Part shown: positions 1 to 54,600 of the stretch, piece after piece | Numbering within the stretch: the first letter of the stretch is position 1 | Layout: each line of letters starts with the position of its first letter | Assembly (NCBI RefSeq): GCF_963921235.1 | Contig: NC_086108.1 | Span: 81,532,001-81,596,000 of the forward strand | Source of the DNA: Mobula hypostoma | Lineage: Eukaryota | Direction of reading: 5' to 3' | DNA length: 64,000 nucleotides | Made by a program: the position numbers and the translations under genes | The notes under the pieces: model-generated | The model's database searches: none | The model's input: the letters and a program-made list of their open reading frames with translations, nothing else | Told to the model about the DNA's origin: nothing

Positions 1-834
1 GTGCTTAGAAGAAAAAGCAACTGCAGGAATGTGGAGTGAGTGTGCTGGTGTAACTGTGTTGCACTTACTTGGAGCCTGTAGGGACCAGAGTAGCCGAATG
101 GCTCCTTCCATGCTGTGAGAATTTCCTGTGATTTTACGTAAAATTCCTCCTGAATTCTAAATATCTATTTTTCTCTATTCTTCCTACAAAATATATTTAC
201 GCTTCCCTTTATTTTGCACTTTCTACCTGCAACCTTTCGGTTCACTTGCTTAACCTTGTCATCTCAGGAGCTACTCTACATACAATCAACAGATCTTTAA
301 TCTCCAGGTGATACTAATTCATTCAGTTCACTCCAAAAAGGCAATACTTTTCTTAGTTTATCATCTGCTGATGATATTTGCTCGTGCTTGCTCTCTCGCT
401 CTCTAGTTTAATATTTGAAGGTATTTTCTTCGACGGGTAGTTTCTCTGAGTTCAGCCTGAACTCCACTAGGTAGGGAAAAACAGTTAAGATTTACATTGA
501 AGTACAGTGTCTCAACTTGCAAGATGACCTATCTCTTCCTCTGAGCCCTCTTTACTTATAGTCCAAAAATCGCACCACTGCCAGTTTGATTGACACAATC
601 CTTCCTTTTGTCTGTACCCTCTCTTTTCTGTTTGCTGGATAAAGTAAAGTTTGATGTTCTTTGACAGAGAAAAGTTTTGAGTGTCTCAGCAGTCTAAAAC
701 ATATTAACGATAATTTCCCCTGATATTCACACCCGTGAATGCCTGTTAGGGACAAAGCGAGACAGAGCTGAAGTTATCTTGATGCATTGGCTTCTTACTT
801 TGTTGACATTATCATATACTGTAGCAGGGGTCCA

Positions 835-1395
835 TGGGGTGTGTGGGGTGTCAGGGAGGAGTAGCACCCCTGGTGGGGGAACATGTCGCGTCCTTTTCAG
901 GGCGGTTAGTCCACCTTTGGTCCCCACCTGGCACTCAGCTCTCACCTGTGTCTCCCCGTAGCTGTTTGCATGTGACAGCGGCCACACTCCGGGCAACGGT
1001 TTCGACAAGCCGGCTAAAGCAGGTGAGGGTAGCCGACGGGTCTCAAACCCTCGGTGTGATAGGGAGTTGTCTATCCCAGCACGTGAAGACAGACTCCGGC
1101 GGATTGAGCGGACGAGACCAATGGAAGGTCCAATGGTCAAGGCGGCGGTCTCTGCAAGTGTCATGGAACATGTAGAGCAGGACAAGACACAGAAGACGTC
1201 TCGGTCATCCACCGCACCCAGCCCCATCTCCAGCCATCTCGACTCTGTCTTGCCACTGGATCCAGATGGGAACTGGGAAGAGAGAGTGAGGCTGATGCTG
1301 TGCAACTCTCCCTCACTTAAATCCAAATCAAGCACTAGTCTCGACACCATCATAATGGTGTGGAGGTCCTCATCGACGTCAACGATGAATGAACA
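835..1395 (+). mobile_element. Non-autonomous non-LTR retroelement (~560 bp) with HDV-like ribozyme at its 5' end
   Basis: Flanked by a degenerate 14-bp TSD (GTAGCAGGGGTCCA 821-834 / GCAGCGGGGGTCCA 1396-1409). GC-rich and structured, with no credible ORF and a short ATGA-like tail. Confidence 0.75.
836..1029 (+). ncRNA. HDV-like (nested double pseudoknot) ribozyme fold; this copy has a P3 mismatch
   Basis: P1 836-842/984-990; P2 939-949/1018-1029; P3 950-952/981-983; L3 starts TCC; GGGCAA 991-996; P4 997-1012; J4/2 GCTAA with putative catalytic C1014. Confidence 0.7.
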
Positions 1396-1679
1396 GCAGC
1401 GGGGGTCCAGAAGAGAAGCTTGTGGTTGCATGAACAAAATATTTCAGGATTCCATCTCCAGTTTACAGTCTGTTTGAAAAGTATTACCACTGATGTAAGA
1501 TTCCACCACAATATCTTAGACCAGAAATTGCAGTCAATTTTCTAAAGGCTAATATTTGGTTCACCATGAGTTCGTCAGCATTCACCACTAAAGTGTCTGG
1601 CTACATTTCCTTTAGCCACATTAATGTTCTTTGAATTTAATTAGTATTAAATGTGCTGTATTCTTGGTATTTATAAGAC

Positions 1680-1960
1680 CTTAAGACACTGGAGCAGAAT
1701 TAGGTCATTTGGCCAAACAAGTCTGCTCTGCCATTCCATCATGGTTGAATTATTATCCCTCTCAACCCCATTGTCCTGCCTTCTCCTCCTAACCTTTGAC
1801 ACCCTGACTAATGGAGAAGCGATCACCCTCTGCTGTAAATATATTCAATGACTTGGCCTCCACAGCTGTCTGTGGCAATGAAGTACACAGATTCACTACC
1901 GACTGGCTAAAATAATTCCTTCTCATCTCTGTTCTAAAGGGACACCTTTCTATTCTGTTG
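1680..1960 (-). mobile_element. CR1 LINE 3' fragment, decayed
   Basis: Resembles the CR1 3' ends at 26227 and 29669. Confidence 0.65.
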
Positions 1961-9599: not shown

Positions 9600-9859
9600 G
9601 ACTGCCACAAGCCACACCACCCAGCACCCCACCTATTAGACCCTAGCCTAATCAGAGGACAAGTTAGAATGATCAACTAACCTACAAACTGCTACCTTTT
9701 TGGGCTGTGGGAGGAAACTGGAGCTCCCAGAGCAAATTCACGTGGTCACGGGGAGAACGTACAAATTCCATACAGTTGGCACCGGAATTGAACTCCGTAC
9801 TCCAACACTCCGAACTATGATAGCGTCATGCTAACTGCTGCACTAACATAGCGCCCCAC
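9600..9859 (-). mobile_element. tRNA-derived SINE (V-SINE/HE1-like)
   Basis: tRNA-like head with B-box GAGTTCAATTCC and central GTACGTTCTCCCCGTGACC...GTTTCCTCCCAC domain, shared with the SINEs at 12365, 31180 and 56025. Confidence 0.75.
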
Positions 9860-10023
9860 AAAATATGGAGCACTTCACGAATCTGTGTGTCGTCCTTGCG
9901 CAGGGGCCATGCTAATCTTCTCTGTATTGTTCCAGTTTTAGTATACGTGCTGTCAAATTTCCCTCGGGATCAATAAAGTATATCTATCTACCTATCTATC
10001 TATCTATCTGTCAAATTGAGCAC
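9860..10023 (-). pseudogene. RNU6: Full-length U6 snRNA retropseudogene, interrupted near its 5' end
   Basis: Reverse complement matches U6 from GTGCTC through ACAGAGAAGATTAGCATGGCCCCTGCGCAAGGA to CCATATTTT, with scattered transitions. A short LINE-tail insert (AATAAAG + (TATC)n) has TSD CTGTCAAATT at 9950-9959 and 10008-10017. Confidence 0.95.
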
Positions 10024-37180: not shown

Positions 37181-37259
37181 GACACTGTACTTACCCGGGC
37201 AAGCAAAGAATATTTTACCACACTACTAGCTTTTGTCTTGTGGATGGTGGAAATGACTT

Positions 37260-48770: not shown

Positions 48771-49827
48771 TAATACTGTTACGTACCCCGTAACTGGGTT
48801 GCCAAACCAGCAGAAATGGATCACTCAGTTGGAGTCTGGAGTACTAGAACTAAGAAAGTTTTATTAAAGAAACAAGCAACACAGTAATCGAAAGGATAAT
48901 AAATGCAACAATTCAACAATGATAACCACACATGTGCACAGAATTAAGATAACAGCATCAATCAAGCTCTATCGTTGTCTAGGGGTAAATGACCAATTTC
49001 AAAATGACTCAAAGTTCAGTCCAGTTTGTAGTTCAGTTCGCAGTAATCGTTGCCATGGCGATGGACAAGGTGGGGGAAGAGAGACAGAATAGGAACAACT
49101 GATCATTCAGAACACTGCTTCACTCACAGACCAGCGGGATGGCTCACAGACCAGCGAGATGGCTCACAAACAGCTTTTGGGCAGGTCCTTGGTGATGTCA
49201 CCTGAGGTCACCGACTGTGACCCCTCCTCCAGATGCGGTCGATCCTCTGCAGTGAACCCGGCACCCAGGCAAGGGCGGACACACACCGGGTTCCCGCTGA
49301 TCGTACCTTTCCACCCTTGTCGTTGTCCGATACTTCTCACCCACTCGTGAGAAGCGCACCGCTTCCAGGGTCTCGTTACCTCGGGTGGCGTGTGTCCCTG
49401 TCTTAGCGAACCTGTCCCTTTTTATCCCCCTGCTGGGGTATCGCCTGTCCATCACTTCAAACAGTTCAGGGTTCAAAGGGGGGAGCCGCTCCAGACAGCT
49501 CTCTCTCCCACATCCCTTCATTACACATCTCCAGACGCTGCTCCATTGTTCCTTATCTCTCCTTCCCCTGAGGGCAGGTGGCAGACCAACTGCTGATGCC
49601 ACTGATGCTAGCCCAGGCCAGCAAACATCTTAATTTTATGTGTATTCTTGTAACACTTCCCCCCTTTAAGGATTTTTACCGGGAGGTAAAAATTACAAAC
49701 ATGACTACATTATCTGATACATACACAATATACATCTTTAACAGTTATTTAGCTAATACAGAGAATTTGAAGCTGTCAACACCTTGACAGACAGTCATCA
49801 CATTTTCTGTTCCTTTTACACGTGTTA

Positions 49828-50376
49828 TTAATAATCCCTTAGACCAGGCTCCAACTCAGCAAACTTCATAGTGGCCAAAAACACTGATGAATTGCGACCA
49901 ATGTAACCTCTCATTTGGTTTTGTCCCGGACCACAACAACAAGGGTCGTCCCATTCCGACTCAATTTTCTCTCGCAAGGGCTTAGTAGGAGGGGGACGGG
50001 TATTGACCGCAGAGTTATTGCAAAACTTCCTGCAGTACCCCACCATCTCCAAGAGCCTTCTGAGGGCCCTCTTGTCTATCGGGGTTGGGAGGTCAGCGAT
50101 AGCCTGCACTGTAGCTTGCATCACTGCCAGCTGCCCCTGTGTCACCACAATTCCCAGGTAAGTGACCCTTGTGTGGCCGAATTCATTTTTTTCAAGGTTC
50201 ACTATCAAGCTGGCTTCAGACAGCCGTATTAAATTGCCAATACACACCTCTGTGTTCATCAGCCCTTTAGTCACTGAATTACTCAAAAAATATGGGTGTT
50301 GTTTACTTGGCTGCCCTATTGTAACCACAATCACCCAAGTCCCAGTTCTTTGCATTTCCTCGGGACAATCAAACAC
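49828..50376 (-). pseudogene. Degenerate RT remnant (no YxDD)
   Basis: KQHPY and LSEASLIVNLEKNEFGHTRVTYLG...LRRLLEMVGYCRKFC match the RT N-flank and thumb; the catalytic core is absent. Confidence 0.85.
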
Positions 50377-52748
50377 ATGGGTGCGAGTCGTTTAATTACT
50401 CCTTCGGGGATTAAGGGAGAGACCTTATCAGTAGACCTGGCCAAAACAATAGCCTTCTCCCATCTGACCGATCCCATCCTAATCTTTTCAAAATGGTTCT
50501 TTTCTCTTATCAGGGGGCCCCTAGCTTCATTGATTTCCACGCTAACACCGACTAGGTTTGTTAGCATATCAAAAGCCGGTGACCGTCTCAGTTCGCGTCG
50601 GTCATGATCAATAACATTTTTCCCCCTGGGCAGCCGGTAAATCTCTTTCATGATTCCACCAACTGTTTCCTCCAGCACCGCAAAATGTCCACCGGGGGGT
50701 ACCTCGTGGGCCATGTTAAAAACCTCATCCCCATAACTCTTTTGCACCACCCCCCACTCCTCATCTGCGGATGCTGTACTTGATTTCCCTTTCTTCCTTA
50801 GCACTTCCTCATCCGCACAATAGCTTGTCAAGGCTGTGTCAGAGAGAGCGGTCTCGGCAAAAACCATCAGCCCCTCGTCTCGCTCCTGCGTCTGCACAAA
50901 TTCTTTCCTGGCTACTGCTACGTCCGTCCCAGCTCCCTCACTACCTCTTATCTCACTACACCCTGTCTCATACAAGGTTGGCAGAAATGTTTCAGCCAAA
51001 TTCACCATCGCGGGCGGGGCCTCCATGCTGGCAGGCTGACCCGTCAATCTCACGACTGGGAACACGATTCCTCCGGCGATGTCATTACCGAGCAAGACTT
51101 CCACGTCTTTCATCGGTAATTCGGACCTCACCCCGATCGTGACTAGTCCAGAGACCAGGTTGCTCTGTAAGTGTATCTGGTGCAAAGGGACTGGCTCTGT
51201 CCCTTCCCCAACACCTTTGACCTCTACCTCCCCAGTCTGGGTCTCTGAGCTAAACTCTAATACACTCTTCAGTATTAGTGACTGACACGCTCCCGTGTCT
51301 CTCCAGATCCGCACTGGAACTGGTTTTAACCTCTTTTTCACTGACACCAGTCCGGCCGAGATAAACCTCTCGCGCCCTTCCTGGACTTTTTCAGACCTGT
51401 CCTTCCCTAGCGGTTCGCTTAACAGCTCAATACAGCCATTCAAAATTTCCGCTTTTCCTTTCCCCGTCTCCTTCCTTGGGGCAAAGCACCTGGACGCAAA
51501 GTGTCCGACTTTCCCACAATTATAACAGACGACCCCAGGAGACTTCCTACCAGACTGCTCCCGGTCTACCTTATCCTTTTCACTAGTCCCCGGCTTACTT
51601 TCTGACTTTTCCAGCGGACTCTCCCCTCCGTCCTGACTACCCTTCTGGTAGCCTTTACTCGGGGCAAACTTCATTTTATGCGTCAACGCATACTCATCCG
51701 CTAACTTAGCAGTTGCGGCTAACGTGGCTGCCTCTTTCTCATCGAGGTAGGGTCTCATACCCTCAGGGACACAACCTTTAAACTGCTCAATCAGAATCAG
51801 CTGCAGCAGTCTGTCATAATCCCCCTCTACCCCTTTCGAGGCGCACCAACGCTCACAATATGTTTGCATCTCGCGAGCAAACTCCAAATACGTGCAGTCC
51901 CACTGTTTCCTCGCATTCCGGAACCTCTGCCGGTATGCCTCCGGGACCAACTCATAAATCCTGAGGATGGCCTCCTTCACCACCTCATACTTCTGGGCAT
52001 CTTCCGCGGATAAAGCGGAGTAAGCTTGTTGGGCCTTCCCTTTCAGTACACTCTGAAGTAAGACAACCCACTTATCCCTCGGCCATTCCTGACTTATGGC
52101 CACTTTTTCGAAATGGAGAAAGTACCGATCCACATCGGTATCGTCAAATGGGGGAACCAGCCTAACCTCCTGGGTCGCCCGGAACCCTCCACCTTGGTTC
52201 GGCACGAGCCCCTGCTCGGCCCTTATCTTTAACTTCTCCAGCTCAAATTCCCTTTCCCTCTGTTTCTCCTCTCTCTCCAACTGTCTGTCCCTCTCTCTCT
52301 CTTCTCTCTCCAACTGTCTTTCTCTCTCTTGCCTTTCTACCTCTTTCTCTCTCTCCCGCCTTTCTAACTCTCTCTCTTTCTCCCGCCTTTCTAACTCTCT
52401 CTCTTTCTCCTGCCTTTCTAACTCTCTCTCTTTCTCCTGCCTTTCTAACTGCTTCTCTTCGTGTTCTAACTGCCGTACCCGGAACTCGTGCTCGAGTCTC
52501 AGTTTTTCAAGCTGTACCTGTACCGCGTCTCCAGCAGGTTTTTCAATAGACACCTCCCCCAGCTCACCTTGGGGAAACACACCTTTAGATACATAGTGCT
52601 CTACAATAGCTCTGTGTATCTCCTCTCTCCTCATTGTCGACTTCACCTTAGCAAGATTCACCCGTTTTGCCACAGCTATCAATTCCGATTTCCTGGCATC
52701 CTCTAATGCCTCCAAGGTCGGTGCCTTTATAAATTCCTCAACCTCCAT
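50331..52748 (-). CDS. Gag (SCAN-like capsid, CCHC knuckle) - aspartic protease - pol remnants
   Basis: 805-aa open frame: E/R/K repeat, VPEAYRQRFR...ILIEQFK, CYNCGKVGHFASRC, RDTGACQSL, LLGND, and integrase Zn-finger remnant AHEVPPGGHF. Confidence 0.92.
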   Translation of the reverse strand: MEVEEFIKAPTLEALEDARKSELIAVAKRVNLAKVKSTMRREEIHRAIVEHYVSKGVFPQGELGEVSIEKPAGDAVQVQLEKLRLEHEFRVRQLEHEEKQLERQEKERELERQEKERELERREKERELERREREKEVERQERERQLEREERERDRQLEREEKQREREFELEKLKIRAEQGLVPNQGGGFRATQEVRLVPPFDDTDVDRYFLHFEKVAISQEWPRDKWVVLLQSVLKGKAQQAYSALSAEDAQKYEVVKEAILRIYELVPEAYRQRFRNARKQWDCTYLEFAREMQTYCERWCASKGVEGDYDRLLQLILIEQFKGCVPEGMRPYLDEKEAATLAATAKLADEYALTHKMKFAPSKGYQKGSQDGGESPLEKSESKPGTSEKDKVDREQSGRKSPGVVCYNCGKVGHFASRCFAPRKETGKGKAEILNGCIELLSEPLGKDRSEKVQEGRERFISAGLVSVKKRLKPVPVRIWRDTGACQSLILKSVLEFSSETQTGEVEVKGVGEGTEPVPLHQIHLQSNLVSGLVTIGVRSELPMKDVEVLLGNDIAGGIVFPVVRLTGQPASMEAPPAMVNLAETFLPTLYETGCSEIRGSEGAGTDVAVARKEFVQTQERDEGLMVFAETALSDTALTSYCADEEVLRKKGKSSTASADEEWGVVQKSYGDEVFNMAHEVPPGGHFAVLEETVGGIMKEIYRLPRGKNVIDHDRRELRRSPAFDMLTNLVGVSVEINEARGPLIREKNHFEKIRMGSVRWEKAIVLARSTDKVSPLIPEGVIKRLAPMCLIVPRKCKELGLG

Positions 52749-53731
52749 TTCTGCTGTTTGTCTTTTCTTTCTTTCGGGAATTTTAACCCAATCAATTTAC
52801 TCCGTCCCAAATTTAGCGTTCAAAATCCCGGACGAGCCCCCACTTATGTTACGTACCCCGTAACTGGGTTGCCAAACCAGCAGAAATGGATCACTCAGTT
52901 GGAGTCTGGAGTACTAGAACTAAGAAAGTTTTATTAAAGAAACAAGCAACACAGTAATCGAAAGGATAATAAATGCAACAATTCAACAATGATAACCACA
53001 CATGTGCACAGAATTAAGATAACAGCATCAATCAAGCTCTATCGTTGTCTAGGGGTAAATGACCAATTTCAAAATGACTCAAAGTTCAGTCCAGTTTGTA
53101 GTTCAGTTCACAGTAATCGTTGCCATGGCGATGGACAAGGTGGGGGAAGAGAGACAGAATAGGAACAACTGATCATTCAGAACACTGCTTCACTCACAGA
53201 CCAGCGGGATGGCTCACAGACCAGCGAGATGGCTCACAAACAGCTTTTGGGCAGGTCCTTGGTGATGTCACCTGAGGTCACCGACTGTGACCCCTCCTCC
53301 AGATGCGGTCGATCCTCTGCAGTGAACCCGGCACCCAGGCAAGGGCGGACACACACCGGGTTCCCGCTGATCGTACCTTTCCACCCTTGTCGTTGTCCGG
53401 TACTTCTCACCCACTCGTGAGAAGCGCACCGCTTCCAGGGTCTCGTTACCTCGGGTGGCGTGTGTCCCTGTCTTAGCGAACCTGTCCCTTTTTATCCCCC
53501 TGCTGGGGTATCGCCTGTCCATCACTTCAAACAGTTCAGGGTTCAAAGGGGGGAGCCGCTCCAGACAGCTCTCTCTCTCCCACATCCCTTCATTACACAT
53601 CTCCAGACGCTGCTCCATTGTTCCTTATCTCTCCTTCCCCTGAGGGCAGGTGGCAGACCAACTGCTGATGCCACTGATGCTAGCCCAGGCCAGCAAACAT
53701 CTTAATTTTATGTGTATTCTCGTAACAATAC

Positions 53732-54600
53732 TTACCACTAATACTACTACTACGTTGACTTAGGCCTAGGGGGCCGGCGTCGGGCACAATGACAGACTCT
53801 CCACTTCTCCCCCTCCCTCATCAGTGCGTTCAGTTCATCTACATTAGCCGCGCCGCTGTCTTCTAGGAGCGTGTTGACCATAGTCTTGGGAGGGTGCCAA
53901 GGGTTCCTCCTCCCACGCTTGGGCTCCCATATGATGACTAGGCTGGCAGGTAGCTCAGAGTGGCGTAGACAGTGCCCCGCTAGTTGCAGTCTTCTCGCCT
54001 CGATTTTAGTGGTGAGCATCGGTAGGTTGTTATAGAGCTCAACGTTCGTCATGTGCTGTTGCCAACTCACATCAAGAGCCATCCAGAGCATTCGTGTATA
54101 GCAACCATCTAGAGACTTTCGCATCGTCTTGGTGAGTGTCCACCTCTCGCATCCGTACGTGAGAATGGATTCTATGACTGCTATGAAAATCCTCTTTTTA
54201 AGCCGCTGGTCAGGTTCAACTTCCAGATTTCCTTCATGTCGTTCATAACCCTCCACGCCAGTGCCTTCCGTATCTTTATGTCCTTCTCTGAACTCATCAT
54301 TCTTGACCCAAGGTACTTGTAGTCAAAGACTTTCTTAATGGCATCATTCTCTACAGTCTTGAGAGTACTTTCTTCACAGTTAAACGCCATGTAGCATTTA
54401 GGTGAAGTCCAACATTATTGCACTCAATTTCCACTTTTGTCAGTAGCTGCTGTGTTTCCTCCATCTGGTCAGAGAGCAGGACTATGTCGTCTGCAAAATC
54501 GAGATCCGTGAGCGTAACTGACTGACCCTTTTGGTTCACCATGGTTTTATGGTAAAACCAAGCTTGTCATGATCTTTGGTAGCTTGACACAGAGCGTCAA
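53732..54600 (-). mobile_element. RTE/RTEX-type LINE, 5'-truncated
   Basis: LTDLDFADDIVLL, DYKYLGS, ESILTYGCERWTL, RRLQLAGHCLRH; (TAG)n tail. Confidence 0.9.

Follow-up and report, generated by a model that had tools for sequence, protein, structure and literature searches.

Bipartite RTE derivatives, ribozyme-headed SIDEs and RTE ribozymes are already described kinds of element. The bipartite RTE elements RTE-N2_Lch, RTESINE1/2, WALLSI3 and Bov-A retain the 5′ end of the LINE, and RTEs are predicted to bear a 5′ ribozyme (Kojima, 2018; PMC5786205). HDV-like ribozymes in RTE and other non-LTR elements were described by Ruminski (2011; as cited in PMC5786205 and PMC6765202), and twister variants of RTE ribozymes (PMC8501958) and duplicated P1 sequences in R2 (PMC3774820) have also been described. 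In Drosophila, R2 SIDEs and hybrid SIDEs of the R2/R1 type join an HDV-like ribozyme to a LINE 3′ end; R2 SIDEs are released from a co-transcript, their cleavage was shown, and template jumps with non-templated bases were reported (Eickbush and Eickbush, 2012; PMC3414825). In Trypanosoma cruzi, NARTc is a non-autonomous deletion derivative with a 5′ HDV-like ribozyme in common with the LINE L1Tc (Pr77), which belongs to the Ingi clade and whose 77-base minimal ribozyme is also a promoter (PMC3185411; PMC3383444).

The element studied here lies in a window of 64,000 nucleotides of Mobula hypostoma (contig NC_086108.1, positions 81,532,001 to 81,596,000 of the forward strand); the window is the whole stretch of DNA that was analyzed. 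Like the bipartite RTEs in the accessible text of PMC5786205, the element retains nothing of an RTE but its 5′ end and the very last stretch of its 3′ end, and has no ORF; like the Drosophila SIDEs it combines a predicted HDV-like ribozyme with a LINE 3′ end, and like NARTc it is a deletion derivative having this 5′ structure in common with its LINE. R2 SIDEs, as far as described in PMC3414825, are rDNA-specific and rare, whereas the present family is dispersed, numbers thousands of copies and has a putatively APE-type parent. The short element extends the SIDE/bipartite-RTE scheme to a high-copy family, and it adds an L3-hairpin form of the predicted ribozyme that was missed by Rfam. A putative pairing between the two ends of the parent RTE carries more weight than the ribozyme-headed short element itself.

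Boundaries and abundance of the short element

The element occupies 560 bases (window positions 836–1395; Table 1) and is a worn copy of an abundant mobile family. In the genome of 3.48 Gb, the family search gave 5,071 candidates, of which the best 40 were scored. Exact-motif counts genome-wide were 1,693, 1,783 and 2,666, each with no control match, and a fourth motif gave 1,947 exact matches vs. 92 in the control. The copies are dispersed and independent, with target-site duplications and a microsatellite tail, and the family numbers several thousand. Because the element exists in thousands of copies, the duplication around the window copy is not a chance repeat. The family may already be catalogued in Repbase or Dfam, and the supplements of PMC5786205 may list it or its relatives; Rfam gave no match for the element (window 600–1700, E 1).

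Table 1. Features of the element and its flanks in the window (positions of the 64,000-nucleotide stretch).
Feature	Position	Strand	Remarks
Left target-site duplication	823–834	+	11/12 match with 1398–1409; exact core 827–834
Extra T between duplication and element	835	+	T in 23/30 copies
P1 5′ strand, start of element	836–842	+	Predicted cleavage 5′ of G836
J1/2 domain	843–938	+	Predicted closing stem 846–855/927–936
Second GGGGTGT	845–851	+	Inside predicted J1/2 closing stem; absent in L190 and L219
P2 and P3 5′ strands	939–952	+	P2 939–948; P3 950–952
L3	953–980	+	Core TCCCCG; U953, P1.1 C954–C955, G958; inserted hairpin 961–965/975–979
P3 and P1 3′ strands, GG	within 981–1029	+	P3 981–983; P1 984–990; GG 991–992
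P4, J4/2 and P2 3′ strand	997–1012, 1013–1017, 1020–1029	+	J4/2 GCTAA with predicted catalytic C1014
Rest of retained RTE 5′ UTR	1030–1339	+	
5′-UTR box	1340–1350	+	Complementary to 3′-UTR box; edge of deletion and of head-SINE joints
Deletion joint	1351–1356	+	TAAT 1353–1356 aligns to both 5′ and 3′ parts of parent (BLAST)
3′-UTR box from parent's 3′ end	1355–1365	+	G1362, private to window copy, breaks one pair
Terminal stem-loop and short AAC-type tail of parent RTE	1366–1397	+	Common to LINE 3′ ends L095, L111, L120, L379–L408
Right target-site duplication	1398–1409	+	Exact core 1402–1409 vs. 827–834

The preliminary description placed the 5′ boundary at the predicted cut site. Since best-match copies are biased towards full length, this was examined on the first 30 copies by genome position, picked with a motif starting at 845, and all 30 were found to extend to 836–839. 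Among 30 loci picked by the tail, 27 were short elements (18 starting within 14 bases of 836 and nine truncated) and three were LINE ends; 30 loci picked at the 5′-UTR box comprised 27 short elements, two composites and one LINE. The extra A/T bases at the 5′ joint differ among copies. The T at 835 is likely a non-templated addition and could also reflect an RNA start one base earlier. Besides, the copies L052, L340 and L404 show either a 5′ inversion or a head duplicated as a fold-back, and L179 has two tandem heads upstream of a single tail.

The parent RTE

Sequence comparison showed the element to consist of the first ~520 and the last ~43 bases of a 4.1-kb RTE, with the interior deleted. 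Two full-length parent copies, L409 (4,094 bp, 12-bp duplication) and L410 (4,064 bp, 8-bp duplication), begin with the same ribozyme as the short element and match its positions 1–521 at 89–90% (about 90% for full-length copies) and 518–560 at 81–91% identity. Among 30 LINE loci found via the parent's 5′-UTR junction, 18 begin no more than 5 bases from 836, and the LINE ends L095, L111 and L120 and locus L128 belong to the same RTE-type parent. All reading frames were broken in the five parent copies examined. The parent protein matched RVT_1 (E 1.6e-24) and, weakly, an endonuclease domain (E 4e-4, below the curated cut-off); its relatives of ~1,060 aa contain both domains, and the nearest full-coverage ones are 72–80% identical. 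The terminal motifs suggest that the parent belongs to the RTE clade. A Vingi or Ingi origin, considered because of a resemblance, was dropped once the parent was identified.

The element had been characterized beforehand as SINE-like, ribozyme-processed and Pol III-independent. Mobilization by an RTE and the lack of a Pol III-type head agree with this (no tRNA, 5S or 7SL head was found, the whole element aligning to LINE ends with no Rfam match), but judged from its sequence the element is better named a bipartite internally deleted LINE (SIDE/RTE-N type).

The part of the leader lost by the short element (L128:1010–1320; L190:620–950) opens with a conserved motif, which was found with up to three mismatches in 33 of 36 RTE leaders, mostly ~310–365 bases before the frame. 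No Rfam match was obtained for this part; it may be a structured translation-initiation element, since the frame appears without a start ATG.

The element holds both ends of the 4.1-kb RTE, is flanked by duplications, starts at 836 like the other copies, and has a fold that covaries in two distant relatives (see below); this deleted RTE copy probably spreads by predicted ribozyme release and by the parent's protein. A host transcript would read through the element, the ribozyme would cut 5′ of G836 and release the element RNA at its 5′ end, and the parent's protein would then bind the terminal stem-loop and prime reverse transcription at a nick, the insertion leaving a target-site duplication and extra 5′ bases.

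Complementary boxes at the deletion joint

The deletion joins an 11-base box of the 5′ UTR to its complement in the parent's 3′ UTR. The joint of the short element folds as an 11-pair hairpin (L025, z −2.9), one arm of which comes from the parent's 5′ UTR and the other from its 3′ UTR. The boxes differ in sequence among RTEs and yet stay complementary (family, CTCGACACCAT; L190, CATGACTTCA; L205, TTTGTGCTGCTA). In L404, a second, independent deletion shares the 5′ breakpoint and differs in the 3′ one.

Pairing between own 5′ and 3′ ends was analyzed in the family and in 35 of 80 metagenome loci encoding RTE relatives, namely those with a near-complete frame and a leader no shorter than about 500 bases. 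In many RTEs the best complement initially mapped 340–385 bases before the frame, and an early test (11/31 vs. 12/155), which used a crude 3′ cut and a region picked post hoc, was superseded by tests anchored on the conserved leader motif. After removal of three loci without the anchor, 22 without the hairpin pattern and two duplicates, the own 3′ end ranked first in five of the nine remaining loci (permutation 6/100,000). In a more inclusive test, four loci were dropped and seven near-duplicates removed, and across the 25 divergent RTEs left the mean duplex energy was −22.3 kcal/mol for own ends vs. −18.0 kcal/mol when ends of different RTEs were combined (0 of 50,000 permutations), for a region suggested by the first look at the same loci. 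Two flanking regions taken through the same test gave null results (15,676 and 41,553 of 50,000 permutations). The effect is one of averages: the own 3′ end ranked first in 4/25 and among the top three in 8/25, and it ranked 20–22 in L204, L230 and L258.

The accessible text of PMC5786205 gives no reason for the breakpoints of bipartite RTEs and describes no UTR pairing, and UTR-to-UTR pairing of RTEs was not found in the literature searched (outside most subscription journals and the Repbase reports). From these patterns, contact between the ends would likely explain why shortened RTE elements arise. The 11-base 5′-UTR box of the parent RNA is predicted to pair with the complement lying a short way upstream of the terminal stem-loop, which would close the RNA into a loop. 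If the reverse transcriptase jumped over the loop, precisely this deletion would result, with the 5′–3′ duplex setting the deletion point. A covarying duplex with its edge at the breakpoint makes the question of origin testable by compensatory mutation. In RTE-based gene-insertion systems, according to the accessible part of PMC13708176, the cargo is flanked by cognate 5′ and 3′ UTRs, and a defined pairing rule would bear on their template design.

Two other schemes were rejected. A cut of the LINE RNA at the 5′ box into head and body was given up since 20 of 20 LINE copies run upstream through the joint, and an obligatory jump to the head since 30 LINE 3′ ends comprised 17 plain truncations, 12 that ran beyond the end of the locus and one joined to a head.

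Head-SINE composites

A further group of loci (L269–L358; e.g., L270, L287 and L289) consists of ~700-bp composites, in which the ribozyme head, a tRNA-like SINE and the RTE tail lie within one duplication. The accessible part of PMC5786205 describes tRNA heads upstream of RTE parts; here the ribozyme head lies upstream of the tRNA-like SINE. Likewise, R2 jumps, as far as described in PMC3414825, add small RNAs to the element at its 5′ end, whereas here a LINE head is found on a SINE. Visual inspection showed motifs resembling A and B boxes, which suggest a tRNA origin of the SINE; ARAGORN predicted no tRNA for any of 10 composite loci.

A search for the joint pattern detected at least 135 head-SINE composites with no control match, and their joints start at the same point of the 5′ box as the deletion of the short element. 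Among 30 composites picked by joint pattern, the head was complete in 21, the RTE tail was present in 28, and a duplication of at least 7 bases surrounded the whole unit in 17. The tRNA-like SINE was found between head and tail in 4/30 position-picked loci. When copies were picked by the SINE-tail joint, the head was present in 29/30; with only one copy in 30 headless, a free-standing RTE-tailed SINE hardly exists, and the addition of heads to such a SINE was therefore rejected. Picking by the SINE 5′ end (n = 30) gave 13 copies with tail and head, 15 headless copies with other tails, and two rearranged copies with a head, so that the head was carried by all 13 of those with an intact RTE tail. 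As a separate observation (L330–L358), the head and body of a single tRNA-like SINE occur in the genome with four or more distinct tails, and related tRNA-like SINE copies lie on the minus strand of the window at 37182–37114 and 23731–23631.

The 3′ joint of the composites is fixed and the 5′ side is variable, a combination that would fit a Pol III transcript regaining a head at each insertion. We propose tentatively that RTE RNA loops by pairing of its UTRs, that the reverse transcriptase jumps, and that the tailed SINE regains its head in trans at nearly every insertion. RNA looping and a jump to the edge of the 5′ box would, if true, explain why bipartite RTE derivatives are frequent, and pairing in trans would mean that two RNAs are joined for each composite insertion.

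It is doubtful, in our opinion, that the inverted boxes are mere coincidence or function in the DNA, and that one or a few recombination events each produced the short element and the composite, which then multiplied as whole units. Of the short copies, 55/70 carry either of two 4-base joints distinguished by a single letter, as such a history would predict; both SINE subfamilies of the composites share the one 3′ joint, L351 has a head without a 3′ box, and the 17 plainly truncated LINE 3′ ends mentioned above are headless. One head-SINE site pair was also linked (r2 0.32, p 0.007, one of 84 tests). Mean r2 in composites was 0.037 for head-SINE and 0.079 for head-head pairs, and the linkage test has poor power because head-head linkage is also low. 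The same history is harder to reconcile with complementarity kept by different sequences across divergent full-length RTEs, and with the 14 spacer sequences of 0–16 bases that were found in 45 composites of two SINE subfamilies. Allele frequencies also speak against it: 1331A was present in 30/40 composites and 18/25 LINE copies vs. 8/70 short copies (about 30 of these 70 being best matches to the window), and composite heads resemble LINE heads and not those of the short element. It is possible that a few founder composites were formed instead of repeated joining.

The predicted ribozyme and the 5′ end

All HDV elements named in the preliminary description were present where it had placed them. 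Most copies contain a complete HDV-like double pseudoknot, with P1, P2, P3, P1.1 and P4 in nested order at the 5′ end, as in known ribozymes of RTE and other non-LTR elements (accessible parts of PMC5786205 and PMC6765202). The majority bases of the family pair in every helix, including P1 and P3, whose pairing in the consensus had been named as a critical check. P1 was fully paired in only 30/60 copies and all helices were intact in 14/60; the L3 hairpin was fully paired in 56/60. The core was conserved, with U953 in 60/60, G958 in 59/60 and C1014 in 56/60 copies; by HDV numbering, U953 and G958 would form the L3 reverse wobble and C1014 would be the catalytic C.

The window copy departs from the family majority at T951, T988, T1000 and G1362. 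It is 92.5% identical to the column majority, while the 30 best copies average 96.5%. The suspicion that this copy is impaired was borne out: its P3 contains a T951–C982 mismatch, T951 is private among 30 copies compared, and other copies have G at 951 (27/29) and C at 988 (28/29). As the family majority differs at 951, the mismatch is decay of this copy, which fails strict P3 in the ribozyme descriptor and passes with one mismatch allowed. Given the P3 mismatch and the single pair broken in the 3′ box, this copy is unlikely to be active.

Two features had been called unusual. The J1/2 domain was shown to be structured (z −2.5 in copy L025, −1.7 in the window copy); the lowest-energy J1/2 fold of the window copy differs from the predicted closing-stem fold. 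Such a domain is no exception among ribozymes of this kind and has a precedent in drz-Agam-2-1 (Webb, 2016; PMC4908430), which in the accessible text has the same long structured J1/2, closing stem, short linkers and extended P2, an arrangement that speeds cleavage. The L3 hairpin is present and conserved, but it was inherited in the parent lineage and is not peculiar to the short element. With its 5-bp hairpin, L3 has 28 bases, longer than the short L3 of 7–8 bases expected of HDV-like ribozymes and compared with 7 bases in four other RTE matches; no L3 insertion of this kind was found in the ribozyme literature searched (outside Ruminski, 2011).

A leader of 250 bases or more was available for 71 of the 80 metagenome loci, and the descriptor matched 8/71 of these leaders vs. 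2/71 reverse complements and 2/71 shuffles. Four of the eight matches have a 7-base L3 and two are doubtful. Those with a 7-base L3 (L203, L210, L238 and L242) also have a long J1/2. Two distant RTE relatives, L190 and L219, were shown to share the form of the family, with P1 being GTGGTGT/ACACCAC in L190 and AGGGTGT/ACACCCT in L219. Double changes occur in P1, P2 and P4, with a rewritten P4 in L219, and G-U pairs preserve the L3 hairpin in both. These changes are compensatory. In an alignment of six rows, four of them from the Mobula genome, 5/33 pairs change on both sides (1/500 shuffles), a count that leaves out the P1 change of L219, which the aligner shifted by two columns, and that is small because only two independent relatives carry this form. 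Within the genome, covariation was uninformative since the copies share ~96% identity with the column majority. Rfam searches with the leaders L190 and L132 gave only chance-level, unrelated families. The element is predicted to form, at its 5′ end, an HDV-like ribozyme of an L3-hairpin variant.

It is unlikely that the 5′ end is set instead by an internal Pol II promoter at 835/836, comparable to Pr77, with a protective or translational fold that need not cut. Such a promoter would account for the T at 835 of most copies and for the 13/60 copies that share A841, which makes an A-C mismatch in P1 and has spread nevertheless; moreover, the first 77 bases of L1Tc hold both promoter and ribozyme (accessible parts of PMC3185411 and PMC3383444). 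It would leave unexplained the covariation of P1 with the seven initial bases in L190 and L219 and the conservation of U953, G958, C1014 and GCTAA, the catalytic core, and the variable extra A/T bases at the 5′ end resemble the non-templated additions of R2 (accessible part of PMC3774820). Cleavage through the second GGGGTGT acting as P1, nine bases inside the element, is highly improbable: 845–851 pairs perfectly with 984–990 and is invariant where position 841 varies, but none of the 30 position-picked copies starts at 845, 846–855 should be occupied by pairing in the predicted J1/2 stem, and in L190 and L219 changes in the P1 3′ strand accompany those in the first GGGGTGT, the second not being retained.

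The LINE at 53.7 kb and other features of the window

As helper of the element, an RTE-type LINE located 53.7 kb into the window had been tentatively suggested, on the basis of a GTCAACG shared near the 3′ ends, a suggestion that is now practically untenable: another RTE shares both ends of the element, no significant DNA match to the 53.7-kb LINE was detected (best 10 bases, E 0.72), its tail differs in having TAG repeats, its protein is only 26% identical to that of the true parent, and in seven long loci of its family the match to the element was never better than E 0.94. This LINE (53730–54600, minus strand) is a 5′-truncated copy, with a TAG-repeat tail, of a second, distant RTE-type family, for which 14,855 candidates were found in the genome and of which seven longer loci share only ~0.9–1.2 kb of 3′ sequence.

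An LTR-type retroelement with a gag-pol-like interior was found on the minus strand at about 49500–53730, its repeated terminal sequence lying near 49500–49640 and 53570–53720. Also on the minus strand, 9859–9963 contains a U6 snRNA-like copy with a divergent 5′ end (RF00026, 90.9 bits), which is probably a retrocopy.
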